This document shows, one piece after another, positions 5,752 to 62,841 of a stretch of DNA of 64,000 bases. How positions within the stretch are numbered: position 1 is the stretch's first letter; every line of letters begins with the position of its first letter. Origin of the DNA: Patescibacteria group bacterium (GTDB lineage: Bacteria > Patescibacteriota > Saccharimonadia > Saccharimonadales > JAUPVS01); contig JAUPVS010000003.1 in assembly GCA_030916945.1 (NCBI GenBank), positions 6,536 through 70,535 on the forward strand, in the 5' to 3' direction. Under the pieces are notes generated by a model, which was not told the origin of the DNA, searched no databases, and saw only the letters and a list, made by a program, of their open reading frames with translations. The translations under genes and the position numbers were made by a program.

Positions 5752-6000
5752 ATGCCTACCGCTTGCTACCGGCAGTTGATCAACGCCACGAGCGAACTTT
5801 TAGGTCCGGCCAGCCAACGCTTTATTGATCGGCAAATTCGCAACCACCTAAGCATCGAACCAAGTGACCTAACTAAGGCGGATTTGAAAAAGCTGATACA
5901 ATGGCTACGTTTGTCGGTAGGGGTATTAACCGACGACGAAGCCTTGTTGTATAACTACGATTTAACTCTTAAAAAACTTTGCGACGAGGATAAGTCATGA
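5752..6000 (+). CDS. hypothetical protein (82 aa)
   Basis: The ORF starts 4 nt after the upstream stop. Its TGA overlaps the kinase ATG (ATGA at 5997..6000). Confidence 0.45.
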   Translation: MPTACYRQLINATSELLGPASQRFIDRQIRNHLSIEPSDLTKADLKKLIQWLRLSVGVLTDDEALLYNYDLTLKKLCDEDKS

Positions 6001-7127
6001 AGCCAAATACCAATAAAACCAGCAACCTGCGCCGGCGCATCATCCAACTGGCCCAGCAACAGGCCGAAAACGAAGCTTTATTTGATAGCATCGGCCAGGG
6101 CGCTCTAGCCACTGATCAAGATGGTAAAATTAGTCGCATTAACCAGGTGGCGCTGGAAATACTTGGACTCAAGCGTAGCCAGGCGATTGGTAAATGGTTC
6201 CCAGAAGTCATTATCGCAGAAGATGAAAACGGTCAGGAAATAGAGCTTCTGGATCGACCAATTACAACCGCGTTTTTGACCGGCGAACCAGTTACTACAT
6301 CGATGTATTATCGTCATAAAAAGGGCAGTGTCGTACCAGTCAGCGTAACAGTTTCGCCGATACTTATGAACGGCCACCCAATTGGAGCCGTTGAGGTTTT
6401 TCGTGACACTAGCCATGAGCAAGAAATTGACCGGATGAAGTCAGAGTTTATTTACTTAGCGTCACACCAGTTAAGAACACCTTTAACGGCAATTAAAACC
6501 TATACCCACATACTACAAAACGGCTATAGCGGGCAGTTGACGGCCGATCAAACTGGTTTTATGGACAATATTATAGAATCTGTTGACCGTATGAATGAAA
6601 TTATTAACACCCTCCTGAACATTAGTCGAATTGAGTCCGGAAAACTAGTGCTCGATAGTAAACCATTGCTGTTAGCTAATATCATCGATCGCTGCCTACT
6701 TGAGCTGAAGCCACAAATAAAAGCCAAAAATCTGCAAATACGAACCAATATTCAACATCAGAATACTGTGAATACCGATCCTAACTTTGTTCATGAGGTT
6801 TGCGCCAACTTATTATCTAATGCCGTCAAGTACACGCCGGACGGCGGCAAGGTGTCTGTATCGATTAGACGCAGTGGTAACGAACAAATTATCCGCATAC
6901 AGGATACTGGTTATGGCATACCAATTTCATCCAAGAACCACATCTTTAACAAGTTCTATCGATCACCCAACGTAAAACAAATCGTTAGTGAAGGCACCGG
7001 TTTGGGGCTGTATCTTTCTAGCGGAATCGTCAAAGCCCTGGGTGGACAGCTCTGGTTCGACAGTGAAGAAGGCAAGGGTTCAACCTTTTACTTTGCCTTA
7101 CCCAGCCCAACTCAAGCCAAAAGCTAG
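5997..7127 (+). CDS. cytoplasmic PAS-domain sensor histidine kinase
   Basis: 376 aa. PAS-like N-terminus (ATDQDGKISRINQVALEILG). H-box SHQLRTPLTAI, N-box LLSNAVKYT, G-boxes DTGYGI and GTGLGL. No TM segment. Confidence 0.85.
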   Translation: MKPNTNKTSNLRRRIIQLAQQQAENEALFDSIGQGALATDQDGKISRINQVALEILGLKRSQAIGKWFPEVIIAEDENGQEIELLDRPITTAFLTGEPVTTSMYYRHKKGSVVPVSVTVSPILMNGHPIGAVEVFRDTSHEQEIDRMKSEFIYLASHQLRTPLTAIKTYTHILQNGYSGQLTADQTGFMDNIIESVDRMNEIINTLLNISRIESGKLVLDSKPLLLANIIDRCLLELKPQIKAKNLQIRTNIQHQNTVNTDPNFVHEVCANLLSNAVKYTPDGGKVSVSIRRSGNEQIIRIQDTGYGIPISSKNHIFNKFYRSPNVKQIVSEGTGLGLYLSSGIVKALGGQLWFDSEEGKGSTFYFALPSPTQAKS

Positions 7128-36131: not shown

Positions 36132-37556
36132 CTAAACGCCAATTATATGGCGGCATGCAATAGTAGCTACTGTGCCCGGCACTTGAGCCATAATTCCAGG
36201 AATAACCGCCGCATTAGGGTTTCGGCGGCTGGCAGCAACTGCACCGATTGCAAAAACATTAGAGAGGTAGCCTTCATTAAGGGTAGCCACCGCTCCATCG
36301 CAGGGTCGTATAGCCGGCTCGCCACTCTTTTTACCAATCAGCGCATCAATTTCATTAAATAACCGTCCGTCGCGTTGGTAACCAATTAAAGCAAACAGGT
36401 GTGGTTGCTGGAGCTTTATATTTATTCTTGTGCCGCCAATATTCAGAGTATGATCAGCCTCATCATAAATCAAAGTTCGTGCGTCGGTGACAACCAGTTC
36501 TTGCGCCAGCATACGCGAGTAGGTTTGAGCATCACGATCGATATCACCACTAATTCCCGTTAAATAGCTCTTGGCTGGATTCCTAAATAGCGGCCTATCA
36601 CCATCAACCGAGCGAGTCGGATTCTTAACGGCCTGTCTAGAATGGTGAGTGACTACCACGTAGGGAACTGTTTGTAGAGTTCGGTCTTCAAACTCATGGA
36701 TCTGCCGCAACATGGCAATAGTACTATTGCCTAACCCAAGCAGCACAATCGGACGCCCGTTGGACAATTCTTCTTCGGACAAACTACGTTGGTGACGTTC
36801 TATAATTAGTTCGTCGGAAGACAACTCGCCAAGATCGTCTAGGTTTGATCACATGCGTGTGCCATCAATAGGGCGTGGTTCGGTCGCTCCCTGAGCAAAA
36901 ACTAAATAATCACTCTTTAGCTTGGTGCCTTCCTTTGTAATTGCACGCCAGCTACCCTGTGGCTTCCGTTTAGCAGTAGCCAACTCGTCTGCAAGAACAC
37001 GCACATTAGATAGATGGACCGCGGCCACGCCTTGAAGAAAAGTTTCCATACGCCAACCCTCACGATCAGAAATTCCCAATTTACCCTTGCGCCCAAACTT
37101 TAATGCCCGTGGGTTATTAAATCCACCGCTCTGGGCCCACTGCTCGCGCCACATACCGCCTAGGCTTCCTCTTGGATCGACCATTGTAATATTATCAGGT
37201 GATGCGCCACGAATTTTAAGATAGCTGGCCAGTAAAATCGAGGCGGCACCAGCACCGGCAAACACAAACCGACGGTTGGCGAGACCTTCATAATATTCAT
37301 CTGTATCATATGGCATGTCTAGTAAACTAGCGCGAGGTGTCGGTACATCATTATTTGGTGGTAGCACATCATCGCGAAGTGCGTTATTAACGTACCAACG
37401 CTGAATCAGAGCATCCCTGCCAATTGCCAAACCTATATCGGCGCCTAGGGCATCAACATCATTGTCTCTAAGCGAGTAGGCACTGGGGTAATAAGCTGCC
37501 TCGGCCAAGCGCCAGGCTACTTCATAATCTTCTTGTTGATACGGGGAATACGCCAT
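36132..37556 (-). pseudogene. two-dinucleotide-binding-domain flavoprotein (FMO / N-hydroxylating monooxygenase-like) interrupted by a single in-frame TGA (36851..36849)
   Basis: The N-terminal ORF (36849..37556) has the FAD motif FVFAGAGAAS. The C-terminal ORF (36132..36824) has a second Rossmann motif, IVLLGLGNST, and VFAIGAV. I translated the junction by hand as ...GTRM-TGA-SNLDDLGELSSDE, all in one frame. Confidence 0.55.
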
Positions 37557-38921: not shown

Positions 38922-39026
38922 ACCTACCAGTATAACGAACCGATGCCAACGGTCTAGCCTTCTTTAATCTTTTGACTATCTACTCATACCCCTATATCAT
39001 AAGCGTAATAATAAGTAGGGGCGAGA

Positions 39027-39764
39027 ATGGCTAGATTGCCAATTCCAGGATCAGATAAAGGTACGTGGGGTTCGGTACTTAACGACTTCTTGTCGGTTGA
39101 ACTTAATAGCGACGGAACGCTAAAGTCTTCTGGTTCATTAAGTACTAAAGAAAATACTGGCGTCGCGGCCGACCGAACACGAGTAGGTACCCTCGCGGCT
39201 CGCCCGTCGGCGGCTTCATTAAGCAACGGGGTTCGCTATTTTGCCACCGATGACCAAGGTGGAACGGTATATGTAGTATCTTCCGGCGCCTGGGTGGCGG
39301 CTGCCCCAGCTGTATCGGGCATTTCTGGTCAGATTCTGGCATCGGCTTGGCCGAGTGGCACAATTCCCGCTCTTTCGGTTGGCGTCAGCAGCCAAGTTAG
39401 AGTACCGGAACTTACCACTGCTCAGTTTACCGTACCAAATCGTCCAGTTAGGTTTATGGTTCCACAGTTAACAGGAACAATCCCGACCGGTTCAGACACC
39501 GTGTTGTTAGTAAAATGGGACCGTAATGGTGCTGGCACCTATGCGGCCGGCTATACTTCACTTGGTATCCAGATAACCGCCAATAGCGTAGCTAGTGCGC
39601 GCTGGCTAGGTCTACACGGTATGCTTCCAACCGTCTTTACGGCTGGCGATACTGCTCAAGCTGCCATATTTATATCTAGGTCGGGTGTCGCCGCCGACGT
39701 AACCATAAACAACTTCCCAACACTCTTCGGGGTAGCAGCAGGGATTGACGTAGTGGCTCTCTGA
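39027..39764 (+). CDS. phage tail-fibre-like / minor-tail-like protein
   Basis: The N-terminus is MARLPIPGSDKGTWGSVLNDFL, followed by LAARPSAASLSNGVRYFATDDQGGTVYVVSSGAWV. I recognise both as recurring motifs of actinobacteriophage tail fibre or minor tail proteins. This is from memory with no search. Confidence 0.45.
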   Translation: MARLPIPGSDKGTWGSVLNDFLSVELNSDGTLKSSGSLSTKENTGVAADRTRVGTLAARPSAASLSNGVRYFATDDQGGTVYVVSSGAWVAAAPAVSGISGQILASAWPSGTIPALSVGVSSQVRVPELTTAQFTVPNRPVRFMVPQLTGTIPTGSDTVLLVKWDRNGAGTYAAGYTSLGIQITANSVASARWLGLHGMLPTVFTAGDTAQAAIFISRSGVAADVTINNFPTLFGVAAGIDVVAL

Positions 39765-40594
39765 TGCCCACGCTATACACCGCTCACACACCGCTTTACA
39801 CTGCTACCGGTGGTCAGGGTTCAACCCGACTAGTAGCGGCCTGGGGCAGAACCCAGAATAAAAGCTTACCACCAGTTATTGAGTGCGGGGGCTGGCCGGG
39901 CACGGGAGCCTGGAACCCAGCCATTGGCGTATGGTCACGTAAGGCTCTAACGGCCGCTGGCTACACCGTAATTACGGTTTGGACCGGGGCAAACTGGGGC
40001 CACCCAACTGGCTCATCGGCGCCGTCGTCGGGACCAACTGGCACTGGCACTACCGCCATATCTGACGCCCGTACCTGGGCTGGCAGCATCCTTGGCCTGC
40101 AAAACAGCGTAGTACATATTTACGGCACAAGCATGGGTGGCACCAACGCCGCCGCCTGGGCGGCCGCCAACCCATCATTAGTCGGCGGAGTTTATATGAT
40201 GTCACCGGCACTGTCATTGCTGCACATTTGGGACTTATCAGGCACAGCCATTCCTGGGGGTGGCACCTATCCCAACTACGCGTCTTCTATGGCGTCAGCC
40301 TACGGCACAACACCAGGCGATCGGGCGGCTTTTTCAACCGCCAGTCAATCGATTGACCCCGTCCGCAACACAGCCAGCTTTAGTGGAATCGGTAGCCACA
40401 TCTCGATTTTTGCGGCCCGCGACGATGATGTCATCGGCTGGTCCAACTGCGCTAGTTTCGCTAGCGCTACCGGCGCTACTTTGACCGCCTCAGCGCCAGA
40501 AGGTGAACCCGGTGGTGGTCACATAACACCAAACCTGCAAGCCGCTTACAACGAGTTTGATGCCCTCCAACTTTTCGATTCGTTCAATCCATAG
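39764..40594 (+). CDS. alpha/beta-hydrolase (esterase/lipase-like), translationally coupled to the tail-fibre-like gene
   Basis: TGATG overlap at 39762..39766. Nucleophile elbow IYGTSMGG, and a late Asp/His in ARDDDV...GGGHI. Confidence 0.55.
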   Translation: MPTLYTAHTPLYTATGGQGSTRLVAAWGRTQNKSLPPVIECGGWPGTGAWNPAIGVWSRKALTAAGYTVITVWTGANWGHPTGSSAPSSGPTGTGTTAISDARTWAGSILGLQNSVVHIYGTSMGGTNAAAWAAANPSLVGGVYMMSPALSLLHIWDLSGTAIPGGGTYPNYASSMASAYGTTPGDRAAFSTASQSIDPVRNTASFSGIGSHISIFAARDDDVIGWSNCASFASATGATLTASAPEGEPGGGHITPNLQAAYNEFDALQLFDSFNP

Positions 40595-40631: not shown

Positions 40632-41363
40632 ATGCCCCTAGACAGAACAGCCGAACTTTCGTTTGAAGCAGTTGATGACACAGCCGTTAGCACATTGCTT
40701 TCGGTAGGCGTAGTAGTTATGAAGAATGTCGTCTCGCCGGAAGGCCTAAACGGTATTGCCTGCGCCTACAAGCGTTCTCGACGCCTAGCTTTGCCCCGAC
40801 GCGCCTTAGCCCGAGGCCTGGCCCTAGCTGGAGCCAGCGATAGTACACTACATAACACTGTTAAGGCCAAGCCGGTTGAATCGCGCCTGCCGGGCTTTCC
40901 GGTTCACATGCGCACTGCCAAGCAGGCCTTTACAGAAGTTAACCGGCTGCATGGACAATTCTTTGAACACCCGGCCATTCGACAGCGCTACCCCGGTGCA
41001 GTTGACCTTAACCAGGCGGCTTTCCCCATTAATGTCGGTAGCGAAGCTTTTCCGTTGCATCAAGATACCCAAGGTGTCAGCGGGTTGGGCTTTGCTGTTC
41101 AACCCACCCGTACACGCTGGCAAATCCACCAAGTCATCGACCGTTCGCCCGGACCGGTGGAGTTTACATTTGACACCGAGCCCGGTGACACCACCGTACT
41201 ACTGGAACGTCAGGGGCCGGAGCCAAAACAGATGTGGTCCGAGCAAGGCTACTACGACATGGCACCTGACGGCAGTCTGCCTCACAGCGGCATCAACTTA
41301 GAGGATCGCCACCGCTACGGCATGGGGCTGTTCCACCTCGACTACATCGAAGAAATGCTCTAA
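40632..41363 (+). CDS. hypothetical protein, possibly an Fe(II)/2-oxoglutarate (PhyH-like) dioxygenase
   Basis: 243 aa from MPLDRTAE (CATACT at 40620..40625, 6 nt upstream). It has an HxD-type FPLHQDTQG and a later His in LPHSG. The assignment is weak. Confidence 0.4.
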   Translation: MPLDRTAELSFEAVDDTAVSTLLSVGVVVMKNVVSPEGLNGIACAYKRSRRLALPRRALARGLALAGASDSTLHNTVKAKPVESRLPGFPVHMRTAKQAFTEVNRLHGQFFEHPAIRQRYPGAVDLNQAAFPINVGSEAFPLHQDTQGVSGLGFAVQPTRTRWQIHQVIDRSPGPVEFTFDTEPGDTTVLLERQGPEPKQMWSEQGYYDMAPDGSLPHSGINLEDRHRYGMGLFHLDYIEEML

Positions 41364-51771: not shown

Positions 51772-54276
51772 ATGATTTGGTACCAGCAAACCCCTCAGGC
51801 AATTCTTAAAGAACTCGAAACCAGCGAGGCCGGCCTAAGCAGCAGTGAGGCTCAAGCCCGCCTAAAAACCTATGGTCCTAACGAGCTGTCTTTAAAGAAA
51901 GAGCCGCTCTGGAAGGTAATTGTCGAGCCGTTCCGCGGAGTCTTTGTAGCCGTCTTGGTGGCGGCCGCCTTTGTCAGCCTAATCAGCCATGAACCACTCG
52001 AAGCCGTTATTATTAGCGTTATCATCTTGGTGGGGGCGGTTATCTTTTACGTTCAACAGTACGCCACCAACCGCGTCTTGCGCAGCCTTAAAAAAACCAG
52101 TGTTCAACAGGTGGCTGTCCAGCGCGACGGTAGCCTGCAGACAATTTCGGCGCTCGACCTCGTGCCGGGCGACATCTTACTGCTGGCCGAAGGCGAACGG
52201 GTACCAGCCGATGCTCGTATCGTTCAGGCCGAAGGCCTCCAGGTCGACGAGTCGGCCTTAACCGGCGAGTCGGTACCGGTTCATAAACACAACTCGGTAC
52301 TTACTAATAAGAAACAGATGTACGAACAAGACAACATGGTCTTTCAGGGCACCTACGTCGTTAGTGGCGGCGGCCAGGCTGTTGTTGTCGAAACTGGCAG
52401 CAAGACAGCTTTTGGTAAGATCGCCCAGTTAGCCGGTGGCGACAAAACCGTTAGCCCGGTCCAAGTTAAAATTGATCACTTAATTTCGTTGATGGTTAAG
52501 GCCATTGGCGTGCTGGCGCTGGTGGTGTTTGCCTTGTCGCTGGCCCGCGGCATTCCGACTTCTGAAGCTCTACGCTTTGTGCTGTCGTTAAGTGTGTCGG
52601 CCGTACCAGAAGGCTTGCCAGTGGCCCTGACCGTTATTATCGTCCTAGGCATGCGCCGTATGGCCAAACACAAGGCACTGGTTCATTCTTTTAAAGCCAT
52701 CGAGGATATTGGTCTAGTTACTACCATTGCCACCGACAAGACCGGCACCCTAACCAAGAACAAGCTAACTATTGTTGACAGCTGGTCCATAGGCAAAGAA
52801 CAGGTGACTACTATTGCCGGTATGACGCTAGACGTTAGCCAGCGCGTCACTGACCCACTCGACCAAGCCATCATCGACAGTATGAAGGCCGAGTCGCACA
52901 CCACCGTTAATCAGGTCTATCCCTTCGACAACGCCCTGCGCATGAGTGGCGCCTACAGCCAGTCACGCCAGACCATCTTCTTTAAGGGTGCGCCAGAGCA
53001 CATTCTGTCGCATTCGACCTTGAGTGATGCTAAGCGCAGCCAAGCCGAGTCAGCCTTGCACAGTTTCGCTTCTAAAGGTTACCGTGTTATTGCCGTCGCC
53101 AAACATAAATTTGCCGGTAAGCCACCTAAGAACCTGACCGGTTTAAAGAATCAGAAGCTCGACTTTATTGGCTTTTTAGCCCTGGCCGATGAGCTACGCG
53201 AAGAGTCCAGTGACGCTATTAAGGCCGCCCAAGCCGCCGGCATTAGTGTCCGGATGATCACCGGCGACCATTACGAAACGGCCTTTAATATTGGTAAAAA
53301 GCTGGGCCTGGCGACACACCCCGACCAAGTAATCCAGGGGACCGAACTGCCTAAAGAAGTTCACGCCCTAGCCCAGACAATTAAAACCAAGACAGTGTTT
53401 GCGCGCATCCTGCCCGAAGATAAGTTCCGCGTCCTGCAGGCGTTAAAACAAACCGAAATCACCGCCATGACGGGCGATGGTGTTAACGATGTACCAGCCC
53501 TAACCAATGCCCATGTTGGCATTGCCATGGGGTCGGGCAGTGACATCGCGCGCGACGCCGGTGGCATCGTCTTGCTCGATGACAACTTTGCCACCATCGT
53601 TAATGCTATCGCCGAAGGGCGCAAAATCTTTGCCAATATCCGGCGCATGCTGTTCTACTTATTAGCCACCTCGATGGGTGAAATGCTAACCATGATCGGT
53701 GCCTTGCTACTGGGCTTTCCACTGCCAATTACCGCTATTCAAATCCTTTGGATCAACCTGGTAACCGATACGGCTTTGGTGCTGCCACTAGGCTTGGAAC
53801 AGGCCGAAGACGGCACTATGCAAAAGCCGCCGCGCCGCCCTAACGAACCGCTACTTAACCGCATCCTACTGAGCCGCCTGGCATTAGTGGCACTGACCAT
53901 GGCAATTGTTACGCTAAGCATCGTGGCCGTCTTAAAAGGGCAGGGGCAGACTACCGAGTACATCCAGACGGTGGCTTTTATGGCCCTGGTTGTCGCCCAG
54001 TGGACCAACGCCTTTAACGCCCGCAGCGAGTACGGTTCGCTCTTAAGCGGCTGGCGCCGACTTAACATCGGTATGCTGGTTGGCTTACTAGTGGGCTTTA
54101 GCCTGCAGATGCTAGTTATGTTTGGGCCGCTGCAAACTGTTTTTGCAATCGCCGATGTACCGCTTGAGGTCTTACTGACCACCTCGGGAATCATGCTTGT
54201 GGCGATAGCCGGTGTGGCCGAAGTTCACAAGTTTGTTAGCCGACTTATTCGCGACGCAGGGCATCAATCGGGTTAA
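51772..54276 (+). CDS. P2-type cation-transporting ATPase (Ca2+/Mg2+-ATPase-like)
   Basis: 834 aa. TGES, the TM4 motif AVPEGLP, the phosphorylation site DKTGTLT, and the hinge TGDGVNDVPAL. Confidence 0.9.
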   Translation: MIWYQQTPQAILKELETSEAGLSSSEAQARLKTYGPNELSLKKEPLWKVIVEPFRGVFVAVLVAAAFVSLISHEPLEAVIISVIILVGAVIFYVQQYATNRVLRSLKKTSVQQVAVQRDGSLQTISALDLVPGDILLLAEGERVPADARIVQAEGLQVDESALTGESVPVHKHNSVLTNKKQMYEQDNMVFQGTYVVSGGGQAVVVETGSKTAFGKIAQLAGGDKTVSPVQVKIDHLISLMVKAIGVLALVVFALSLARGIPTSEALRFVLSLSVSAVPEGLPVALTVIIVLGMRRMAKHKALVHSFKAIEDIGLVTTIATDKTGTLTKNKLTIVDSWSIGKEQVTTIAGMTLDVSQRVTDPLDQAIIDSMKAESHTTVNQVYPFDNALRMSGAYSQSRQTIFFKGAPEHILSHSTLSDAKRSQAESALHSFASKGYRVIAVAKHKFAGKPPKNLTGLKNQKLDFIGFLALADELREESSDAIKAAQAAGISVRMITGDHYETAFNIGKKLGLATHPDQVIQGTELPKEVHALAQTIKTKTVFARILPEDKFRVLQALKQTEITAMTGDGVNDVPALTNAHVGIAMGSGSDIARDAGGIVLLDDNFATIVNAIAEGRKIFANIRRMLFYLLATSMGEMLTMIGALLLGFPLPITAIQILWINLVTDTALVLPLGLEQAEDGTMQKPPRRPNEPLLNRILLSRLALVALTMAIVTLSIVAVLKGQGQTTEYIQTVAFMALVVAQWTNAFNARSEYGSLLSGWRRLNIGMLVGLLVGFSLQMLVMFGPLQTVFAIADVPLEVLLTTSGIMLVAIAGVAEVHKFVSRLIRDAGHQSG

Positions 54277-55483
54277 TCTTGTGGGCACGTTTAGCCGGGA
54301 AGAAAGCTACCAGTAAGCCGACTACCGTCATAAAGCCCACCAAGGCGGCGATCAGCCAGAATGGGGTCGAGAACAGGACAAAACTCTCTTTGACGCCACG
54401 GTTGCGCGCAAAGTTGTTCATTAGCACGTTAACAATCTGACCAGTAGTTACTGCCAAGGTTATACCAATGACAGCGCCAGCTACCGATAGCAAAACGGCT
54501 TCTAATACAAACAACTTGCTCATATCACGGTTACGGCCGCCCAGGGCCATCATCAAACCAATTTCGCGGGTTCTTTCTAGCAATGAGATAGTTAGGGTGT
54601 TAAACATGCCTAGTACGGCCACAATCATGCCAATGGCGCCAAAACCAACCAGTATGACGTTAAAGAACTTGAAGATCTGATTGATCTGTTCGATTGTGTC
54701 GCTCGGTGAACTGGTTTCAAAACCTTGGCTTTGAATTTGCGAACGCAAACCGGCCACATTTTTGGAATTATCAGAAATTAGTTTCATCTGGGTGTAGCTG
54801 GTGACACCAATGTCTGTAAAGATAAAGCTCGGTACATAGACTTCACTGCCGGCCCCTGACTTAACCACGCCAATTACCGTGAACTCATCCTTAACCTCGG
54901 CCTTTTTAGCCTTAGGATCTTTCATTGGTATAACCAGGGTGATCTTTTTATTGATAATCTCACTATTAGACTTGTAGCCGACCGCTTTAACGGCCGCTTC
55001 GTTAAGCATTACGACGCGGTTATCTTCTTTTTTAAGACTGCGACCACCACCCAGCGAAAAGTCAGTTAGCTCCAGATAGCCCTGATCAACACCATAAACA
55101 ATCGTATCAACCGAGCTGCCACGCTGGTTCATGCTACCGGGAAACGAATACTGCAGGCCGTACTTTTCGACATGGGGCAGATTCTTAATTTTATCGACCT
55201 GTTCGTTATTTAGCTGCACCACCTTCGAGTTAGCCGAACTGATGTCAATCGACTTAACCGAACTGTTGCCAACAATTTCTTTGGTAACCAGATTCTGGAT
55301 GCCTAAACCAAACGATAGCAAAAAGAAGATGGCACCGATACCAATAATGACACCGAATATGGTCAAGAAGGTTCGAAGCTTTTTACTTACCAAGTTACGC
55401 CAGGCAATATAGATGACCATGCGCAACGGAATGGCCGTGTAGTGTTTCTTAACGCCGTGGTTATTGGTCTTTTCGGACGGCAT
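54245..55483 (-). CDS. MacB/FtsX-type ABC transporter permease
   Basis: 412 aa. It has an N-terminal TM, a large extracytoplasmic domain of about 230 aa, and a C-terminal FtsX module (LERTREIGLMMALGGRNRDM). Its start overlaps the ATPase gene by 23 nt. Confidence 0.85.
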   Translation of the reverse strand: MPSEKTNNHGVKKHYTAIPLRMVIYIAWRNLVSKKLRTFLTIFGVIIGIGAIFFLLSFGLGIQNLVTKEIVGNSSVKSIDISSANSKVVQLNNEQVDKIKNLPHVEKYGLQYSFPGSMNQRGSSVDTIVYGVDQGYLELTDFSLGGGRSLKKEDNRVVMLNEAAVKAVGYKSNSEIINKKITLVIPMKDPKAKKAEVKDEFTVIGVVKSGAGSEVYVPSFIFTDIGVTSYTQMKLISDNSKNVAGLRSQIQSQGFETSSPSDTIEQINQIFKFFNVILVGFGAIGMIVAVLGMFNTLTISLLERTREIGLMMALGGRNRDMSKLFVLEAVLLSVAGAVIGITLAVTTGQIVNVLMNNFARNRGVKESFVLFSTPFWLIAALVGFMTVVGLLVAFFPAKRAHKINPIDALRRE

Positions 55484-56276
55484 CCATCATCTCCTCGGTT
55501 TTTTTATGCTCCAGGTGCTTGGATCGCGACAGATTATTCAGACGCTGCTTCATGTTATCCAGCAGTTCTTCGGCCGTTTTGGTAATTGAACCGTCGCGCA
55601 TTTCTTGAATCTGGCCATCTTCTATATGGATAAGGTGATCGGCCAGCGGTAAGTATTCCATGTTATGGGTCACCAAAATAATCGTGCGCTTAAACTGGGT
55701 CTGACATTCGCGCAGCAAGTTCATGATCATGTCGCCATTCTTACTATCCAAGCTACCAGTTGGTTCGTCGGCAATAATAAATAGCGGGTCATTAACCAAG
55801 GCTCGGGCTGTGGCGATACGTTGTTGCTCACCACCCGACAGCAGCGACGGGTACTTCTTGGCATACTGACCCATGCTGACGCGGTCTAGGGCGGTCATGG
55901 CAATCTTGGCGGCCTGCGACTTGTTGTAACCCAAAAAGTACAGTGGCATCGACACGTTTTCGATCACACTCAAGCTCTTCACCCAATAGTTAGTCTGGTA
56001 GACAATGCCGATTCGGTTAGCTCTAAAATGAGCTAGTTCGTCGGGCTTAAGCGCGTAGACGTCCTTGCCTTCAAAAAGAACCTGACCCTTGGTGGGCCGC
56101 TGCAAGCCGGTTAAGACGTTCAAGAGGGTAGACTTACCACTACCAGACGGACCATAGATGATGTTAAAACTGTTCTCGGTCAGTTCAAAACTAACTTTCT
56201 GCAAAGGCTTAATGACCTCGTCACCAACCGTAAACTCTTGTTCAATATTAGTAGCTTTAACCAAGATATTTGCCAT
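55461..56276 (-). CDS. ABC transporter ATP-binding protein (MacB/LolD/FtsE-like)
   Basis: [26 protein letters not shown] and [11 protein letters not shown]. It has a C-terminal charged extension of about 45 aa. Its ATG lies 2 nt after the stop of the giant gene. Confidence 0.9.
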
Positions 56277-56278
56277 AG

Positions 56279-59200
56279 CTAGAAACCAAACACTTTCTTG
56301 AGGGTATTAAGTATGATCGTCAAAACGCTGTCCGAGGCCCGGCCAACAATGGCCGACTGAATTTCGCCGGTTCCTGAGTTGCCAGAACGGTCTTTGGACA
56401 CCGGCTGCATACTGTAAACGCGTGAGGTTGGCAGGTCGGATACAATTACGACGTGCTCGGTACTCAGAGCCGAATCTTCGGCCGTCTTGCTGTTAAACAC
56501 GGTGACACCAGCGCCGTCAGCAAAGGCAACCTGGCTGGTCGATGGCTCGTCGGTTCGCCACGACACTACCACTTGGCCGCGAGCTTCGGCGCCAACCCCA
56601 CGGATGGCTGGTTCAATGCTAATATTGCTGATCTTGGGCGGACGAGTATCAAGCGCGGTTCTAAAGGTTTGACGGTCTGACACCGCCAAGTTACCGTCTT
56701 TGTCGCGCGACTGAGCAATTAGGGTGTACTCGCTGTCATCTTCTAGAGCCCTGATCACAATTTCGTGCGACGTAACCTGTTCCGACAACTGAGCGTCAGT
56801 GGTACCACCGCCAACTTTTCCGTATGTAATTAAGGTAGAGGACGGCACGTTGGTATCCCAGGTTATCTTTTGGGTACTGGTCGGTTCGCCGCTAACTGGC
56901 TGGAAGCGCAGATTATTAATCCGCGGGCGAGGTGGGGTAGTAAAGGCAGCTACGCTACCATCGTAGGAGTTGCCTTCGCTGTCCGACGATACCAATTTAT
57001 AGAAGTACTTGCTACCATCGTCCAAGCCCTCGAGCGATACATTATAGACCGACTCACTGAGCGATGTATTAACTGTTTTAAGACCACCGTAACCTTCGTT
57101 CTTGCCGTAATAAACAGCTACCTTGGTAGCGTCCTTAGAAGTAAATTGAATGGTGGCATCGGTTAAACCAACGCGCACGGCTGACACCTCTTTAAGACTT
57201 GGCGCCGGGGAGGTTGTAAAGGTATATTCTTGGCTGGTTCCAGTGTTACCGTCTTCGTCGGTCCACTTAGCCACAAAGTAGTAGGTGGTTCCAGCACTAA
57301 GATTGTCCAGCTCAATGGTGTGGGCGCTAACCTGGGTCGAGTTACCCACTTCCGAAGAAGCGTACTGACCACTGGCCGTACCAATCGCCACCTTGGAGTC
57401 ACTAGCCCGGTCGGTACTCCAACTTATCTTAGCTTTTTTGGTAGTCACGTTGCTAACAGTTGGCTCGGCCACAATCACGGCTGGCGTCGTGAACTTACCA
57501 GTAGGAATCTGGTCGACGTTGCTACTAACCGAACCGCAATTATTAGTGCTGTCACAAGCCTTTACATGGTAGTAGTAGCGTTGCGCCGATAAGCCGGCAT
57601 CGATGTAGGTCGTGCTAGTACTACTACCAACAAAGCTAAAGGTGACATTGTTGGTCGAGCGGTAAACCTTGTAGCTGGCAATTCCAGCACCAGTGTAAGA
57701 CGGCGCGTCCCAGGTTAGCGCTAAGCGCCAGTTACTGGTGGACTTGATTGAAACATCTACGATATCAACGTTCAACGGTATGCCCGGCGACGGCGTATTA
57801 GTCGTAAAGTCGGTTTGGGCGTAGTTAGAGTAGTTAATGTTACCAGACTCGTCCTTGGCCACTAGGTACATCGTGTTCAGGCCGGGCTGCGTACCATAAG
57901 CACCGGTTCCCAGGCTAAGCGCCCCGGCGTTGGTATAAGAGCAGGTGACATCGCTTGGCAGGGTATTAAAGGTGTAGCAGTAAGTCAGGTTGTTGGCGTC
58001 GCCAATAAAGGTATTGGGCGCGAACCAGCTAAACGAGAAGGCGTTGACGGTATTGGTAGAAGGGCTAGGCGCCAAACCTTGCGGTGCGCTGGGTGCCCCC
58101 GAGGTATTAACTTTTAGAGCGGCCGTGACATAACTAGTTGTCACGTTGCCGGCCTGGTCCCAGGTTCGAAACGATACCGTATTGACACCCTCGGCGATGT
58201 TGGCAAAATCGGGCGTGTTTTGGGTGGTATAGCTACCGTCGTTCGCTAGCAAGTCGCTGGAGTCGCCAGTACCACTATGGCTGTCACCGTACCAGGTAGT
58301 ATTACCAATCTTATACTGCAAGCCAGCAATACCACTGTTACTATCGGCCGGCGCGGCAACGCCGCTGGTCGGCCAAGTCAGGCTAGCTGTTTTGGTATTA
58401 ATAAAGCCCGACGGCGCCGTCACATAGCCCGGGTTAGCTGGAGCGGTGTTGTCAAAACGGAAGTAGAACTGGGCACCAGTGTCGGCCACGTTGCCAGCGT
58501 TATCAATTGCCTTAACCGTTAGGTAATAGGCCGAATCACTAGTCGTCAGGGCAGTGCCCAAGTAACTGGCTGTAGCCGTGTCGATGTTTGTTCCAGCAAC
58601 AATAAACTGACAGTTATTACCAGTAGCGACCGGGCTGGTTCCCAATAATCCCTTAGTCGTTACCGGGTCGGCCGTGTTGTCGGTTCCCAAATACAAACAG
58701 TAGCCCTTAATGCCAGAATCAGCATCTGTGCCGGCCGTCCAGCTAAAGTAGGGCGAGGAGCCGTTGGTCCAAGCATTCTGCGCCAGTGACGAGCCACCGG
58801 CGGCTTTAAGAGCCGTCACATTACTGGCGTTAACCGACGGGTCAACACTATCCGAGGTTGACGCCAGGGCCACACCGTCCAGCGTCACTTGCTGAGTGCC
58901 ATCGCCGGTCATAACCGCCTGCCAGGTAATACCACCAAAGGTGACGGGGAATTCATCGATATTGGCGTCGATTGTGGCAATAGCATTAGACATTGACGTA
59001 TCGGTCGACTCTACCCAGGCGCTGCCATTCCAGTGTCGCCAGCTCGAACCACCGTCGTTGGACAGCCGATAGGCAATGGTGCCGCCATTGGCTGTTTCGT
59101 TACTAGTCATATTGTCATAACTTTTAACCCCGGCAGTTCTGACCGCCGATGCCAAAGTTACAGTTTGAGCACTAGCACTATACGGTTTGGTCGTAAGAGT

Positions 59201-62200
59201 CGACCGATAATTATTACTGACGCGAACCTCATCTAAGCGGGCGTCAATGTAGCCAGCGTCTTTAGAAGCGCCGCCACTACCATAGCCACTACCAATGTAG
59301 AGTTTGCTGGTACTGTCGGGCATACTCAAGGTCTTGGTCGCCGAACCGGTAACCGTACCATCAACCACAATCTCCATGGTCGTGCCGTTGTAGCGACCAG
59401 CCACATGATGCCAGTTGGTATCTTGGGTGGTAGCCGAGGCTTGTACAAAACCGTTGTCGCCATAAGACCAAACCATGGCGTCGGTGTTGGCGGTATCACC
59501 CATACCGGCGTAGAGTTTGCCCTGGAAAACTGTCATGGTACCAACGTTTTCAATAATGTTGTTAGTCCAACCAACACCATCACCACCAATTGCCGTCCAA
59601 GTCGTACCGTTGTACTTATAAATCTCACCGTCACCCGTGCTTAGGCCAAGCGAAGCGTAAAGATCGCCGTTATAGACCACCATGCTACGGACTCGTTCGT
59701 AGCCAACGCTTTCTAACCAACCCAAGTTATCGGTCGGCGGGTCAGAACTATCACCACCGATCTTGGTCCAAGACGGCGTCGCATCGCAGGTAGTACATTG
59801 CCAGACTTCGGCATCACTGTTACCAACACCGGCACCGGTTAAGCCAAGTCCGGCCACCAGTTTGTCGTTGTAGACGGCTAGGGAAGCGACTTCTTCATAG
59901 CTGGTGTTCCAACTCGAGTACAAGCCACTACCACCAACTTGTGTCCAAGCTGTGCCGCTGCCGCTGTAGCGATACACCCGGCCTTGGTTGGCGCCGTGTC
60001 CAATACCGGCGTACAGCGTTCCTTTATAAGTAACCAGCGCACCAACGCGAGTGTGCGCCGTGCCCCAGTTGCCAGAAGCGGTGCCACCAATTTGCGTCCA
60101 AGTCGGCGTGCCATCACAGCTGGTACATTCATAGACCCGGGCGTCGCCACCGGCGCTATTGCCAATACCGGCGTAAAGCTTACCGTTGGCAACAGCCAAT
60201 GATTCTACCGTCTCTATGGTAGTGTTCCAGCTCGAACCGGTGCCATCGCCACCAACTTTGGTCCAGGCCGAACCATCGTAACGCCAAACCTCCGAATCGT
60301 TGGTATTGGAGCCAATCCCAACGTAAAGTTTATTCTTATAATTAACCATCGACAGAACTGCCTCGTAGGTATCGGCCGCCCAACCACTATTGATACCTTG
60401 GCCGCCGATCATCGTCCAAACGCTGGTGGCTGGGTCGTATTCCCAAACCGTAGCATTACCGGCGGTGGTATTACCGGTACCAGCGTACAGCTTGCCGCCA
60501 ACCGTAGTCGTAGACTCGACGCTCTGAAAACCAGCTTGACCCCAGCTCTTGTTACGGTACTGACCACCAATTCGGGCACCGCCCCAGGCCGGACTAGTGT
60601 CGCAACTGGTGCAACGCCAAACATGTCCAAGCGTGGCGTTCGACAGCCCAGCGTACAGCGTCGTGCCATCGACTAGCAAGGACTGGACCTGGGTGTGAGT
60701 AGAGTTCCAGCCACTGTTCACGCCATCACCACCAACCTTGGTCCAGGTTGGACTGGTTGAGCAACTAGTACAACGCCAGACTTCATCTTCGTTGGTAGTA
60801 TTGCCTAAGCCAACATAAACCGTCGTGCCATTGGCCACAATATCCCATACTTGGTCGTGGGTGGTACCCCAGTAGGTAACGGTGCTTTCGGCAATCTTGG
60901 TCCAGCCAGCCGTGGCCGTACAAGACGAACTAATATCGCAGCGCCAAACTTGAGCATCGGTCGCGCTGTTTCCAGTTCCGACATATAAGAAGTTACCACT
61001 GGCCGCTAAACCTGTAACGTACTCAAAGGCCGACGCCCAGCTCTGGCCGCCACTGCCGCTGCCGTCGCCACCGCGCTTGGTCCAAACTGGCGTGCCACTG
61101 GCACAGTTGGTAGTACATTGCCAGACTTCGCCATCGCCAGCCGTTAAGCCCAAGCCCACCACTGGGTTGCCGCCAATTAGGGTCATGCTAGAAACAGTTT
61201 CGTAAGTAGTGTTTGCCCAGCTACTATTTACACCATCGCCGCCAATGCGGGCACTACCCCAGTCGGGGGCCGTGTCACAGCTGGTACAGCGCCAGACCTC
61301 AGCCTCGCCGGCGGCGTTCAAGCCTAAACCAACCCATACTGTACTACCGCTAACAGCCATCGAGGCAACCGCCTCGTAACCGCCGGCCGCCGACCAACTA
61401 TTATTTACACTATCACCACCAATCTTGGTCCAGCTAGTGCCATTGAAACGCCACACCTCGGAGTCGGCCCCCGAGTTTTTACCTAAACCAGCATATAGGT
61501 AGGTCGTGCCGTCGGTAGCCATAGACGCCACCGACTCAAAAGCATTGGCTGTTACCTGGTTGGTCCAACTGCCATTAATGCCATCACCAGCGACTTGCTC
61601 CCAGGTACCACCACTGGTGTCATAGCGCCAGATTTCGGCATCGTTACTACTACCACCTAAGGCGGCGTAGACATATGAACCAAGTTTAACCTGCTTGGTA
61701 ACGTTTTGTTTGCCGTTAGTATCCCAGCTACGCTTAATCTTGGCGCCGTTGGCGTTTAATAAATCACCACCGGCTTGCTGGGTCCAGTTCATGCCGCCTG
61801 AGTTTTCTAATTCGTAGGTAACCTTACCAGTTTCGTTATCGTAGTAAAGCTGATACTTACCCTTGTCAATAACGCCCTGCTTATAGGGGTGGCTACCAGC
61901 ACTAAAGGCATTATTAAACTTAACCCAGCCCTCGACGGTATGACTTCCGGTTAGCGACAGCGAGGCCGAGTCGTCGGCGCTGGCATTCTGACTGGAACCG
62001 TTCAGCGCCAGCCCATTATTTAAGTTACCAGTGACAAAACTAGGCGTTCCACTGGTCGTACCGTTGTTACTATTACTACTAGAATCGGTCGCCGTCGTGC
62101 CGCTAGATGAGTCAAGGTGATACAGAGCGGCCGTATTGCCATCATTATCATAATTCTGGGCTTTTAAGCGGGCACTGCTGCCACTGGTCTCGACACCACT

Positions 62201-62683
62201 ACTTAAGTTATATGGAGCAGCGCTAGAAAAGTTCCAAGTATCGTTTAAGTCAGACAGGGCATAGGCTTTTTGGTAAACCCTAAACACTAAAAAGCCAACA
62301 AACAAAATGTAAATCGCTATCAGCGCATAGTGGACTTGTGGATGCTTTTCGTAGTTATGCCAGCGATCGTACCAGGCCACTTTTCGTCTTAAGTGTTCAT
62401 GTGGACGAACTGCCACATGGTGATGGACGACTTTGCTGCCGCGGCGCACGCCCACCGCTGTTACAACGGCGATTTTTTTGGAATGACGACCGGCCGTCGC
62501 GACACCCTTTTTGGCGTGATGAGCCGTTGTCTTGGCTGACCTGACAGCTACTGGCTTGACTACTCGATGTGTGTTTTTAAGGGCTTTTACAGATGAGTTC
62601 TTGGCTACGCGTAACCCAGAACCGGCTTTTTTGGTTGCTTTTTTGACAAAAAGCAAGCTAGCTGTCTGCTTGTTTTTCCCCAT
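56279..62683 (-). CDS. giant membrane-anchored surface protein (2134 aa): basic cytoplasmic tail, one TM, a split LamG-type domain enclosing a 14-blade repeat array, then Ig-like and FN3-like arrays
   Basis: The start is set at ATG 62683 (MGKNKQ). The TM is ALIAIYILFVGFLVFRVY. The Laminin_G_3-type halves are GNLNNGLALNGS...HTVEGWVKFN and TNWHHVAGRYNGTTMEIVVDG...LYIGS...IDARLDEVRVSN. The repeats and C-terminal modules are listed as separate features. Confidence 0.85.
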   Translation of the reverse strand: MGKNKQTASLLFVKKATKKAGSGLRVAKNSSVKALKNTHRVVKPVAVRSAKTTAHHAKKGVATAGRHSKKIAVVTAVGVRRGSKVVHHHVAVRPHEHLRRKVAWYDRWHNYEKHPQVHYALIAIYILFVGFLVFRVYQKAYALSDLNDTWNFSSAAPYNLSSGVETSGSSARLKAQNYDNDGNTAALYHLDSSSGTTATDSSSNSNNGTTSGTPSFVTGNLNNGLALNGSSQNASADDSASLSLTGSHTVEGWVKFNNAFSAGSHPYKQGVIDKGKYQLYYDNETGKVTYELENSGGMNWTQQAGGDLLNANGAKIKRSWDTNGKQNVTKQVKLGSYVYAALGGSSNDAEIWRYDTSGGTWEQVAGDGINGSWTNQVTANAFESVASMATDGTTYLYAGLGKNSGADSEVWRFNGTSWTKIGGDSVNNSWSAAGGYEAVASMAVSGSTVWVGLGLNAAGEAEVWRCTSCDTAPDWGSARIGGDGVNSSWANTTYETVSSMTLIGGNPVVGLGLTAGDGEVWQCTTNCASGTPVWTKRGGDGSGSGGQSWASAFEYVTGLAASGNFLYVGTGNSATDAQVWRCDISSSCTATAGWTKIAESTVTYWGTTHDQVWDIVANGTTVYVGLGNTTNEDEVWRCTSCSTSPTWTKVGGDGVNSGWNSTHTQVQSLLVDGTTLYAGLSNATLGHVWRCTSCDTSPAWGGARIGGQYRNKSWGQAGFQSVESTTTVGGKLYAGTGNTTAGNATVWEYDPATSVWTMIGGQGINSGWAADTYEAVLSMVNYKNKLYVGIGSNTNDSEVWRYDGSAWTKVGGDGTGSSWNTTIETVESLAVANGKLYAGIGNSAGGDARVYECTSCDGTPTWTQIGGTASGNWGTAHTRVGALVTYKGTLYAGIGHGANQGRVYRYSGSGTAWTQVGGSGLYSSWNTSYEEVASLAVYNDKLVAGLGLTGAGVGNSDAEVWQCTTCDATPSWTKIGGDSSDPPTDNLGWLESVGYERVRSMVVYNGDLYASLGLSTGDGEIYKYNGTTWTAIGGDGVGWTNNIIENVGTMTVFQGKLYAGMGDTANTDAMVWSYGDNGFVQASATTQDTNWHHVAGRYNGTTMEIVVDGTVTGSATKTLSMPDSTSKLYIGSGYGSGGASKDAGYIDARLDEVRVSNNYRSTLTTKPYSASAQTVTLASAVRTAGVKSYDNMTSNETANGGTIAYRLSNDGGSSWRHWNGSAWVESTDTSMSNAIATIDANIDEFPVTFGGITWQAVMTGDGTQQVTLDGVALASTSDSVDPSVNASNVTALKAAGGSSLAQNAWTNGSSPYFSWTAGTDADSGIKGYCLYLGTDNTADPVTTKGLLGTSPVATGNNCQFIVAGTNIDTATASYLGTALTTSDSAYYLTVKAIDNAGNVADTGAQFYFRFDNTAPANPGYVTAPSGFINTKTASLTWPTSGVAAPADSNSGIAGLQYKIGNTTWYGDSHSGTGDSSDLLANDGSYTTQNTPDFANIAEGVNTVSFRTWDQAGNVTTSYVTAALKVNTSGAPSAPQGLAPSPSTNTVNAFSFSWFAPNTFIGDANNLTYCYTFNTLPSDVTCSYTNAGALSLGTGAYGTQPGLNTMYLVAKDESGNINYSNYAQTDFTTNTPSPGIPLNVDIVDVSIKSTSNWRLALTWDAPSYTGAGIASYKVYRSTNNVTFSFVGSSTSTTYIDAGLSAQRYYYHVKACDSTNNCGSVSSNVDQIPTGKFTTPAVIVAEPTVSNVTTKKAKISWSTDRASDSKVAIGTASGQYASSEVGNSTQVSAHTIELDNLSAGTTYYFVAKWTDEDGNTGTSQEYTFTTSPAPSLKEVSAVRVGLTDATIQFTSKDATKVAVYYGKNEGYGGLKTVNTSLSESVYNVSLEGLDDGSKYFYKLVSSDSEGNSYDGSVAAFTTPPRPRINNLRFQPVSGEPTSTQKITWDTNVPSSTLITYGKVGGGTTDAQLSEQVTSHEIVIRALEDDSEYTLIAQSRDKDGNLAVSDRQTFRTALDTRPPKISNISIEPAIRGVGAEARGQVVVSWRTDEPSTSQVAFADGAGVTVFNSKTAEDSALSTEHVVIVSDLPTSRVYSMQPVSKDRSGNSGTGEIQSAIVGRASDSVLTIILNTLKKVFGF
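56357..57769 (-). repeat. tandem FN3-like modules of about 95 aa at the C-terminus of the giant protein
   Basis: The recurring pattern is x(I/V)xW(x)TDxxSxSxVxYG...T(H)x(I/V)xLxxLxxxTxYY(F)...D..GN...S....F(T/R)T. At least four copies were seen (KISWSTDRASDSKVAIG, IQFTSKDATKVAVYYG, ITWDTNVPSSTLITYG, VVSWRTDEPSTSQVAFA), preceded by a classic FN3 (ALTWDAPSYTGAGIASYKVYRS). Confidence 0.65.
59456..61795 (-). repeat. 14 tandem protein-level repeats of about 45-65 aa (propeller-blade-like) inside the giant gene
   Basis: Consensus: W(T)x(I/V)GGDG(V/I)NxSW...(V/A)xS(L/M)...G.LYAG(L/I)G......(A/S)EVW(R/Q)(Y/C). It is seen 14 times between ORF-track residues about 313 and 1092. Confidence 0.75.
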
Positions 62684-62841
62684 AATGTTACCTTGTTTAA
62701 TATAGCATAAAAGCAATGAATTTGAATACATTTTTTACACAGTTGCAAGACGATTCAATTTTGCAAATTTTACAATTCTGTTGTCAAATTAACTTTACCT
62801 AGCCCCGCCTGGCAGGCTATACTTAGGTCAAAGGGGGATCT

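Follow-up and report, generated by a model that had tools for sequence, protein, structure and literature searches.

A 64,000-nucleotide stretch of contig JAUPVS010000003.1 (assembly GCA_030916945.1), from a member of the Saccharimonadales, carries two adjacent genes that a preliminary description had read as an actinophage tail fibre-like gene coupled to an esterase gene. We refer to the whole stretch as the window. Both open reading frames (ORFs) were where that description had placed them, and the two peptide strings it quoted and the GTSMG motif were likewise found in the sequence. ORF A (positions 39027 to 39764, plus strand), which is in the ORF list and has orthologues elsewhere, encodes a 245-aa chimeric fibre-like protein. 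ORF B (39764 to 40594, plus strand) encodes a 276-aa alpha/beta-fold serine hydrolase, a putative esterase recognized by its Abhydrolase_1 match, its predicted fold and its homologues. The two meet in a TGATG stop/start overlap (39762 to 39766, plus strand), read from the sequence as ctcTGATGccc, in which the TGA of A (39762 to 39764) and the ATG of B (39764 to 39766) have base 39764 in common. This one-base overlap, which had been noted before, implies that A and B are translationally coupled.

The top-scoring site in a promoter scan was a sigma-70-like element upstream of A (TTGACT, a 17-nt spacer and TATCAT; 38972 to 39000, plus strand; 10 of 12 matches). Just ahead of A's ATG lies a purine-rich stretch, TAGGGGCGAGA (39016 to 39026, plus strand), which, read from the sequence, may be a Shine-Dalgarno-like element. 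The pattern TTGACY-17-TAYCAT followed by CATAAGCGYAATA is kept upstream of the orthologues in two other loci, L001 and L002. Protein A is 100% identical to QG553_239 of a Patescibacteria/Saccharibacteria metagenome-assembled genome (MAG) and was found on 19 contigs from several samples, with an identical context in the six places listed; its orthologues P0002 and P0003 are 72% and 90% identical to it. A second full pair (A 72% and B 77% identical to those of the window) lies between truB and an ABC-F gene in L001, from another Saccharibacteria genome (GCA_018001115.1), and a third, with a partial, 5′-truncated A, lies on a Saccharibacteria-type contig of 52% GC (L094). The flanks of the pair differ from those of the window on both sides in L001, and the downstream gene is different again in L094. 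The overlap, as T(G/A)ATG, is kept in both, as it is in three of the phage contigs described below (L003, L007 and L008). Since the similarity between loci begins at the promoter, ends at B's stop codon and is gone downstream of B, the conserved unit consists of the promoter, A and B.

We then looked at what surrounds this unit. Thirty ORFs of the window were scanned against Pfam: the 20 that lie between 33.7 and 48.9 kb and the ten largest of the rest. These scans yielded no phage gene, in agreement with the preliminary description, and neither an endolysin nor an integrase was among the ORFs scanned. The matches near the pair were a methyltransferase, OmdA, DUF1801, a GreA-like protein, a kinase, CYTH, RNase T and GNAT, and those farther away included an AddA-type helicase-nuclease, the alpha and beta subunits of ATP synthase, a P-type ATPase and a MacB/FtsX ABC transporter. 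A single tRNA-Asn gene is 18 kb from the pair. No convincing direct or inverted repeat and no att-like repeat flanks the pair, and a scan downstream of B gave no convincing terminator. In what was scanned, the window locus shows none of the marks of a prophage remnant (hallmark neighbours, an integrase, att repeats or decay), and the sole hint of decay in any copy is a frameshift near the 3′ end of B in L094. Nor does the pair lie in a tail module, its flanks being housekeeping or accessory genes both in the window and in L001.

Another ORF, of 243 aa, begins 38 nt past B (40632 to 41363, plus strand), and there is no terminator-like site between B and its start. Its GC content is similarly raised (0.55). 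It had no match in Pfam, NCBIfam or PADLOC, and L001 and L094 lack it downstream of their pairs. Co-transcription with A and B is possible.

Protein B matched Abhydrolase_1 at an E value of 1.1e-7, above the cut-off; its only other Pfam matches were to Hydrolase_4 and Esterase, and all three were weak. An AlphaFold2 model (predicted template modelling score [pTM], 0.78) showed a generic alpha/beta-hydrolase fold. In an alignment of B with all of its homologues, including those from Saccharibacteria, those from phages and gp32 of Arthrobacter phage Faja, residues G121, S123, M124, G125, G126, D221, G252 and H253 were invariant, as were W78-G79 and D198-P199. This invariance points to Ser123, in G-T-S-M-G-G, as the nucleophile (codon at 40130 to 40132, plus strand), to Asp221, in AARDDD, as the putative catalytic acid (40424 to 40426, plus strand) and to His253, in GGGH, as the putative catalytic base (40520 to 40522, plus strand). 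An acid placed after a late beta strand, like Asp221, is typical of the fold, for example in BphD-type hydrolases. With the fold and the GxSxG motif both present, B is an alpha/beta-hydrolase with a full Ser/Asp/His triad. Foldseek returned more than 1,500 alpha/beta-hydrolase matches, among them prolyl oligopeptidase, PET46, antigen 85C and cinnamoyl esterases at template modelling scores (TM-scores) of about 0.6 to 0.68; because these matches do not discriminate, we assigned no substrate. Searches of Protein Data Bank (PDB) sequences with B found no relatives.

Protein A as a whole had no significant match to a Pfam, PHROGs, NCBIfam or PADLOC family, and PDB sequence searches found no relatives of it either. 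Weak matches to cytochrome b559 (E of about 0.04 to 0.3) were set aside as chance. Three parts can be told apart within the protein. Residues 1 to 45 (39027 to 39161, plus strand) form an N-terminal module, which we call MARLP after its consensus, MARLPxPGSDxGTWGxILNDFLSVEHNxDGTLK. Residues 50 to 95 (39174 to 39311, plus strand) form a unit of the type LAxRPxA...G..YFATDDxGGTxY...G.W, with invariant A, T, D, G and W columns, that occurs in one to seven copies in many fibre-like proteins; no Pfam model matched it as it stands in A. Residues 96 to 245 (39312 to 39761, plus strand) form a C-terminal knob, predicted by AlphaFold2 and Foldseek to be all beta. The nearest sequence relatives of the knob, which include the fibre-position genes of L003, L007 and L008, are without the MARLP module, and MARLP paralogues have in common with A only residues 1 to 45 or those and the repeat. 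A is therefore a three-part chimera of MARLP module, repeat unit and knob. Among the long fibre-like proteins, P0100, P0102, P0105 and P0108 are examples in which the unit of about 45 aa (RPxA...YFATDDxGGTxY...G.W) occurs up to seven times.

The structure of A was predicted from one alignment, A4, an earlier 40-sequence alignment (A3) having been dropped as too heterogeneous. The model had a mean predicted local distance difference test (pLDDT) score of 65 and a pTM of 0.49; the knob consisted of beta strands throughout, with a pLDDT of 70 to 86 over most of it. Foldseek matches of the model included phage minor tail, tail fibre and C1q-domain models and, in the PDB, the tip of the Bdellovibrio fibre Bd2734 (8okw; target TM-score [TMt], 0.55), the TNF-like lectins PLTL and BC2L-C, C1q domains and the knob of the phi812 spike. 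The knob of the monomer model thus resembles TNF/C1q-like trimeric lectins and fibre tips at a modest TMt of 0.55 to 0.60. By prediction, and at the level of the fold only, the knob is a TNF/C1q-like jelly-roll; proteins of this fold are typically trimers that bind glycans.

Relatives of both proteins lie side by side in phage contigs. One set of contigs (L003 to L006) encodes, in order, proteins of 868 and 769 aa, a fibre-position protein of 324 aa, a hydrolase of 275 aa, small genes, an Amidase_2 endolysin, DUF932 and Mu Gam; here the 324-aa protein of L003 is 41% identical to residues 56 to 226 of A, and the hydrolase is 49% identical to B. Another (L007) encodes an S78 protease, capsid, tail tube, tape measure, an 844-aa protein, a 347-aa protein and a 255-aa hydrolase; the 347-aa protein is 44% identical to A over the repeat and has the same C terminus, and the hydrolase is 34% identical to B (E, 3e-33). 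In a third (L008), a 219-aa protein (47% identical to A) is followed by a 249-aa hydrolase (27% identical to B) and an Amidase_2 protein. The hydrolase gene directly follows the fibre gene in L003, L007 and L008, each time with a T(G/A)ATG overlap. The fibre gene occupies the position of a tail fibre gene: in L007 it follows TMP_2 and the gene for the 844-aa protein, and in L004 it follows those for the 868- and 769-aa proteins. P0093, which has two copies of the 50-95 unit, is encoded directly after Baseplate_J and Mu gp48 on a myovirus-like contig. A is thus akin to proteins at the tail fibre position, as the preliminary description had supposed, and its pairing of fibre with esterase recurs in phages.

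These contigs are uncultured and have a GC content of 68 to 72%. Each of the 61 phage records that the L007 capsid matched was of a Mycobacterium phage; of the 27 records matched by the L003 endolysin, 26 were from Arthrobacter phages; and the N-terminal domain of the L003 fibre matched "minor tail" and "tail fiber" proteins of Streptomyces phages. Together these matches mark the contigs as actinophages. A profile of residues 50 to 245 of A found 492 representative proteins at an E value of 1e-3 or below, and the knob-family cluster P0099 includes a protein from a MAG of Phycicoccus elongatus, an actinobacterium. Judged by gene order and homology, the pair is a recurrent module of actinophages, encoded where their tail gene clusters have their distal end, and a previously uncharacterized fibre-plus-esterase pair of actinophages is now defined.

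Phage isolates gave a different picture. The preliminary description had taken two motifs of A to be recurrent in actinophage tail proteins. In a tblastn search of 50,697 phage isolate records, the second motif and the knob had no match; their relatives, which are many, were in metagenomic phage contigs. The first, N-terminal motif was found in six records (five Streptomyces phages; best E, 5e-7; residues 1 to 34/46), which bears that description out only in part, for in the two records inspected, those of BRock and GiJojo, the gene lies in a tRNA-rich, nonstructural region outside the tail module. The BRock protein that bears the module is beta rich and 245 aa long, and its GiJojo counterpart, gp34, is a beta-helix protein. 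The annotated start of BRock gp186 ("collagen triple helix repeat-containing protein"; 5791 to 6738 in our locus L012) overlaps a tRNA-Lys gene, and the true start looks like the MARLP-like MTRLPIPDSD at locus position 6001, giving the 245-aa protein.

B too had no tblastn match in the isolate records, nor did the L008 hydrolase. The L007 hydrolase alone reached isolates, matching Faja gp32 and Gordonia phage genes annotated as "esterase," and Faja gp32 aligned with the profile of B at 95% probability. Faja gp31, the gene upstream, was considered as a homologue of A and ruled out (hhalign probability, 0.1%).

The preliminary description had likened B to LysB and to cutinases, and on that reading B would be a mycolyl-arabinogalactan esterase that A targets, the two forming a lysis or penetration pair. 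B does have the GxSxG motif, Ser/Asp/His triad and alpha/beta-hydrolase fold that this calls for; antigen 85C is among its roughly 1,500 structural matches (TM-score, about 0.64); and in the phage contigs an Amidase_2 endolysin gene comes two to five genes after its homologue. That homologue overlaps the fibre gene instead, however, so that the coupling is to the fibre and not to the endolysin. Moreover, B had no cutinase or LysB match in Pfam, its PHROGs "esterase/lipase" match had an E value of 0.06, and the isolate records in which it went unmatched include many mycobacteriophages (61 matched the L007 capsid). Relatives of B occur in Arthrobacter-type phages, the hosts of which are not known to have mycolic acids. 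We regard a LysB-like role as highly improbable, and the likeness comes down to a generic fold.

The MARLP module has a distribution of its own. In a collection of 5.8 billion proteins, about 80 have only residues 1 to 45 in common with A and have unrelated C termini, the domains of which include BppL_N, DUF5907, PTR, Phage_tail_C, collagen, beta-helix, CBM5/12 and Gly_rich_2. When 185,579 species-representative GTDB genomes were scanned for the pattern, 462 MARLP loci emerged. The best 80 of these were almost all from Saccharibacteria/Saccharimonadales, with up to four listed loci per genome and protein lengths of 97 to 1260 aa among the loci listed. The N terminus of A, which the preliminary description had taken for a phage motif, thus looks like a multicopy adaptor found across Saccharibacteria, a point that description had missed.

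In the 79 loci L015 to L093, the 33-aa MARLP N terminus is kept from Met1. Most MARLP genes are followed by a partner gene on the same strand at −34 to +170 nt, often glycan related (Laminin_G_3, F5/8C, DUF4082/DMFA2_C or beta-helix). In L059, a 926-aa protein with a BD-FAE esterase domain is encoded two genes downstream of the MARLP gene, and tandem MARLP genes occur in L023, L085, L086 and L090.

To see what accompanies the module, we clustered 951 ORFs flanking 83 MARLP loci. The top neighbour was TatC, of the twin-arginine translocation (Tat) system, at 19 of the 83 loci (Pfam E, 9e-55), followed by a protein of 61 to 86 aa at 13 of 83; TatA was present at 3 of 83. The small protein combines a twin-arginine-like motif, [STND]-R-[RK]-x-F-[LI], with a single hydrophobic helix, and its GYG..YGG tail is conserved. 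Its gene lies directly upstream of the MARLP gene in L038 (30 to 3922), L063 (4720 to 8286, with the small gene at 5785 to 5982) and L091 (1126 to 1980). The chance that a gene lies within 6 kb of a single-copy tatC in a genome of about 1 Mb is about 1%, but the observed 19 of 83 includes shared synteny and so is not a clean statistic. The link is genomic only and concerns other members of the family: the window has no tatC, and A and B have no twin-arginine signal. The Tat system exports folded proteins and oligomers and permits "hitch-hiking," which makes a signal-anchor partner for signal-less fibres a testable idea. The small Tat-linked protein may be an export or anchoring route for MARLP proteins that have no signal of their own.

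Conserved N termini with swapped distal parts are also how phage fibres join baseplates, and MARLP proteins, A among them, could in principle be interchangeable receptor-binding fibres that dock by their N-terminal module onto a tailocin, a gene transfer agent (GTA)-like particle or a resident phage, with B as an enzyme associated with the particle. The presence of the module on Streptomyces phage proteins, one of them with a tailspike-like beta-helix, would fit, as would the BppL_N, PTR and Phage_tail_C domains of family members and the absence of signal peptides, which release by lysis would account for. The neighbourhoods argue otherwise. No recurrent phage structural family emerged from the 951 clustered ORFs, which TatC and the small Tat-signal protein headed, and MARLP genes are flanked by housekeeping genes in three complete or large genomes. 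We met no report of such particles in Saccharibacteria in the literature, although no search was aimed at tailocins or GTAs. A fibre for a phage-like particle is unlikely.

Having two full copies of the pair, we compared those of the window and L001. The proportions of nonsynonymous (pN) and synonymous (pS) differences were 0.195 and 0.786 for A and 0.166 and 0.802 for B; we give pN and pS because pS exceeds 0.75 and synonymous divergence (dS) could not be estimated. These values point to strong purifying selection on both genes over a long divergence and, with the orthologues, mark A and B as real genes. With pS saturated, pN at only 0.17 to 0.20 and the promoter conserved, the pair does not look like decaying debris.

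Raw GC is higher in the pair than around it (0.54 to 0.56 against 0.47 to 0.49), and we considered whether the pair is a compositional island. That idea was rejected, since GC at third codon positions (GC3) is ordinary, 0.44 in A and 0.57 in B within a window range of 0.40 to 0.64. The excess arises from amino acid composition: the glycine, alanine, arginine and proline (GARP) value is 0.34 for A and 0.37 for B, compared with 0.257 ± 0.044 for 35 other proteins of the window. GC3 has thus been fully ameliorated, while the amino acid composition still resembles that of a high-GC genome.

These observations bear on whether the pair is simply what is left of a prophage, its last two genes or a hitch-hiking moron, without a present function. 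Homologues do sit in phage tail modules, and the preliminary description had held that homologues in prophages would make the locus debris; what they indicate is where the pair came from, not decay of the window copy. The rarity of the pair among Saccharibacteria, a neighbourhood of mixed accessory genes and a frameshift near the 3′ end of B in L094 would also suit a remnant. Set against these are the low pN, the conservation of promoter, junction and catalytic triad, and the ameliorated GC3. The copies also differ in their flanks, as described above, and the scanned surroundings contain no other phage gene, integrase or att-like repeat. In addition, the N terminus has been exchanged for a module from a cellular family, which implies integration into a host system. 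Prophage debris is accordingly quite unlikely.

We favour another reading, at a probability of roughly 0.55: that A and B form a self-contained two-gene operon of phage origin which Saccharibacteria have kept as cellular genes, a domesticated tip-plus-esterase on a lineage-specific scaffold. A captured phage receptor-binding module with an esterase, as the preliminary description had proposed, remains the best description of the origin of a pair that is conserved, intact and under selection in Saccharibacteria. That description is therefore partly supported: phage origin and nonprophage status hold, and the LysB analogy fails.

Several observations weigh against this reading. In L094 (638 to 1408) B shifts frame past AARDDDVIG and loses the C terminus that carries the His, either because the gene has decayed in that lineage or because the assembly is wrong. 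Full pairs are rare, with about four or five lineages in the 5.8 billion proteins, and the pair is not a core function of epibiosis. The proposed direction of transfer is read from distribution and composition. The structural model of A is only moderate (see the pLDDT and pTM values above), it is of a monomer and its TM-scores are modest, and the generic fold match of B gives no substrate. Finally, we read both sequences for secretion signals: neither A (which starts MARLPIPGSD and has no hydrophobic region there) nor B (which starts MPTLYTAHTP) has a signal peptide of the Sec or Tat type, and neither has a membrane segment. Export to the surface is therefore the chief weakness of this reading.

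The simplest history would be an old capture of a phage knob and its esterase, joined downstream of a resident 5′ segment encoding the MARLP module. The distal part of A and the downstream hydrolase would have been acquired together from a tail fibre/esterase pair of phages that infect high-GC Actinobacteria. The MARLP module, which is common to the products of hundreds of chromosomal fibre-like genes, would presumably dock them all to one common partner, anchor or export route. Actinobacteria are the known hosts of cultivated Saccharibacteria, and A, probably as a trimer, would bind a cell wall glycopolymer of the actinobacterial host, the kind of target that its relatives in phages presumably bind. 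The stop/start overlap would keep synthesis of B in step with that of A, and B would remove an ester-linked group, for example, acetyl or acyl, from the host envelope and so aid attachment or access. As no endolysin or holin has been kept with the pair, B would work with the fibre rather than in lysis. A role in host recognition or penetration, a surface location and the substrate are thus parts of a proposed mechanism, which is compatible with transposon sequencing (Tn-seq) work on S. epibionticum, where essential envelope proteins with glycan-binding or -degrading domains were proposed to target host glycans (PMC10633639).

The same homologies admit a different use. Because the knob and the esterase are homologous to those of actinophages, they could act on the same receptor, and a released receptor binder with a receptor-modifying esterase might mask or destroy the actinophage receptor on the epibiont's host, shielding the host from phage. 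Receptor-destroying esterases exist in phages. Direct evidence for shielding is lacking, however, no PADLOC family matched, and export poses the same problem as it does for the reading that we favour. TM7x has been shown to alter the susceptibility of its host to phage, but it does so via host gene expression, a mechanism other than the one considered here (PMC11032452). We consider shielding very unlikely.

Going back to the domesticated operon, a wider proposal can be built on it, which we put forward tentatively. Saccharibacteria may have a large and as yet undescribed family of chimeric surface fibres in which the 33-aa MARLP adaptor is joined to swappable phage receptor-binding modules, the fibres being exported or anchored by piggy-backing on the small twin-arginine signal-anchor protein beside tatC. 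The present locus would have acquired both its knob and the esterase that goes with it from phages infecting the very actinobacterium on which the epibiont lives. If so, the parasite finds and opens its host with the keys of the host's own phages. A literature search for links between Saccharibacteria or Patescibacteria and tail fibre-like adhesins or receptor-binding proteins returned nothing relevant.

Among known systems, the closest by descent is the actinophage fibre-plus-esterase pair. The two have in common homology over residues of about 50 to 245 of A and over all of B, the gene order, the T(G/A)ATG overlap and the Ser/Asp/His triad. They differ in that the window pair is chromosomal in a bacterium, where no tail, capsid or lysis gene was among the ORFs scanned, and has ameliorated GC3. 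In addition, A has the 45-residue MARLP module in place of the N-terminal attachment domain and collagen-like stalk of the phage protein. Faja gp32 is a cultured remote relative of B, but its upstream gene, as noted above, is not a homologue of A.

The closest by concept is the mosaic adhesive trimer (MAT) family of Bdellovibrio bacteriovorus, which comprises 21 paralogous chimeric fibres with a conserved N domain and phage-like shafts and tips, including TNF-like folds; the fibres are displayed on the surface, and predation on E. coli was slightly slower when Bd2734 or Bd2740 was deleted (Caulton et al. 2024; PMC10769870). Like the MARLP proteins, MAT is a multicopy family in a bacterium that lives off bacteria; its members keep the N-terminal part and exchange phage-like tips, TNF-like knobs among them, and the predicted knob of A matches the Bd2734 tip, at the level of the fold only. 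Unlike MAT, which has a signal peptide and a beta-rich N domain of about 130 aa, MARLP proteins have a module of 33 to 45 aa and no signal peptide, and the two families have no sequence relationship. MAT fibres are also much longer, and no coupled esterase has been described for them. Surface display is established for MAT and is a proposal for the MARLP proteins.

Two groups of phage esterases offer further comparison. LysB, like B, belongs to a phage-encoded type of alpha/beta-fold serine esterase, and it acts on the actinobacterial envelope, as B is proposed to do; it has no detectable sequence similarity to B and sits in a lysis cassette with lysin A, whereas B is coupled to a fibre gene. 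SGNH-type O-antigen deacetylases are receptor-modifying tail spike esterases of phages, and they embody the same concept of a receptor binder with an esterase acting on a surface glycan. They have the SGNH fold and are usually fused into the spike, whereas B is an alpha/beta-hydrolase encoded by a separate, coupled gene.

Apart from type IV pili and a small number of proteins that bind glycans, the means by which Saccharibacteria and other Patescibacteria select and adhere to a host are largely obscure. The locus is a concrete, testable candidate, a small two-protein module with its nearest relatives at the host recognition end of actinophage tails. If the module binds host cells, knowing which phages carry relatives of the knob could serve to predict what hosts uncultured epibionts have, and the MARLP family would be a second, independent case, after Bdellovibrio MAT, of phage fibre parts being reused by bacteria that live on other bacteria.

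Two other features of the window deserve mention. A 2150-aa protein (56279 to 62731, minus strand) has Laminin_G_3, fn3 and purple acid phosphatase N domains, and its gene adjoins that of the MacB/FtsX-type ABC transporter (54245 to 56276); it is a candidate surface or host interaction protein. Finally, we compared the window with L095, from the same organism in another sample, and found one base difference in 20.7 kb. At position 36851 there is an A instead of a G, which changes an Arg codon, CGA, to TGA in a minus-strand gene and so splits a 474-aa FAD/NAD-binding-like gene into two ORFs (36132 to 36824 and 36849 to 37556, minus strand).

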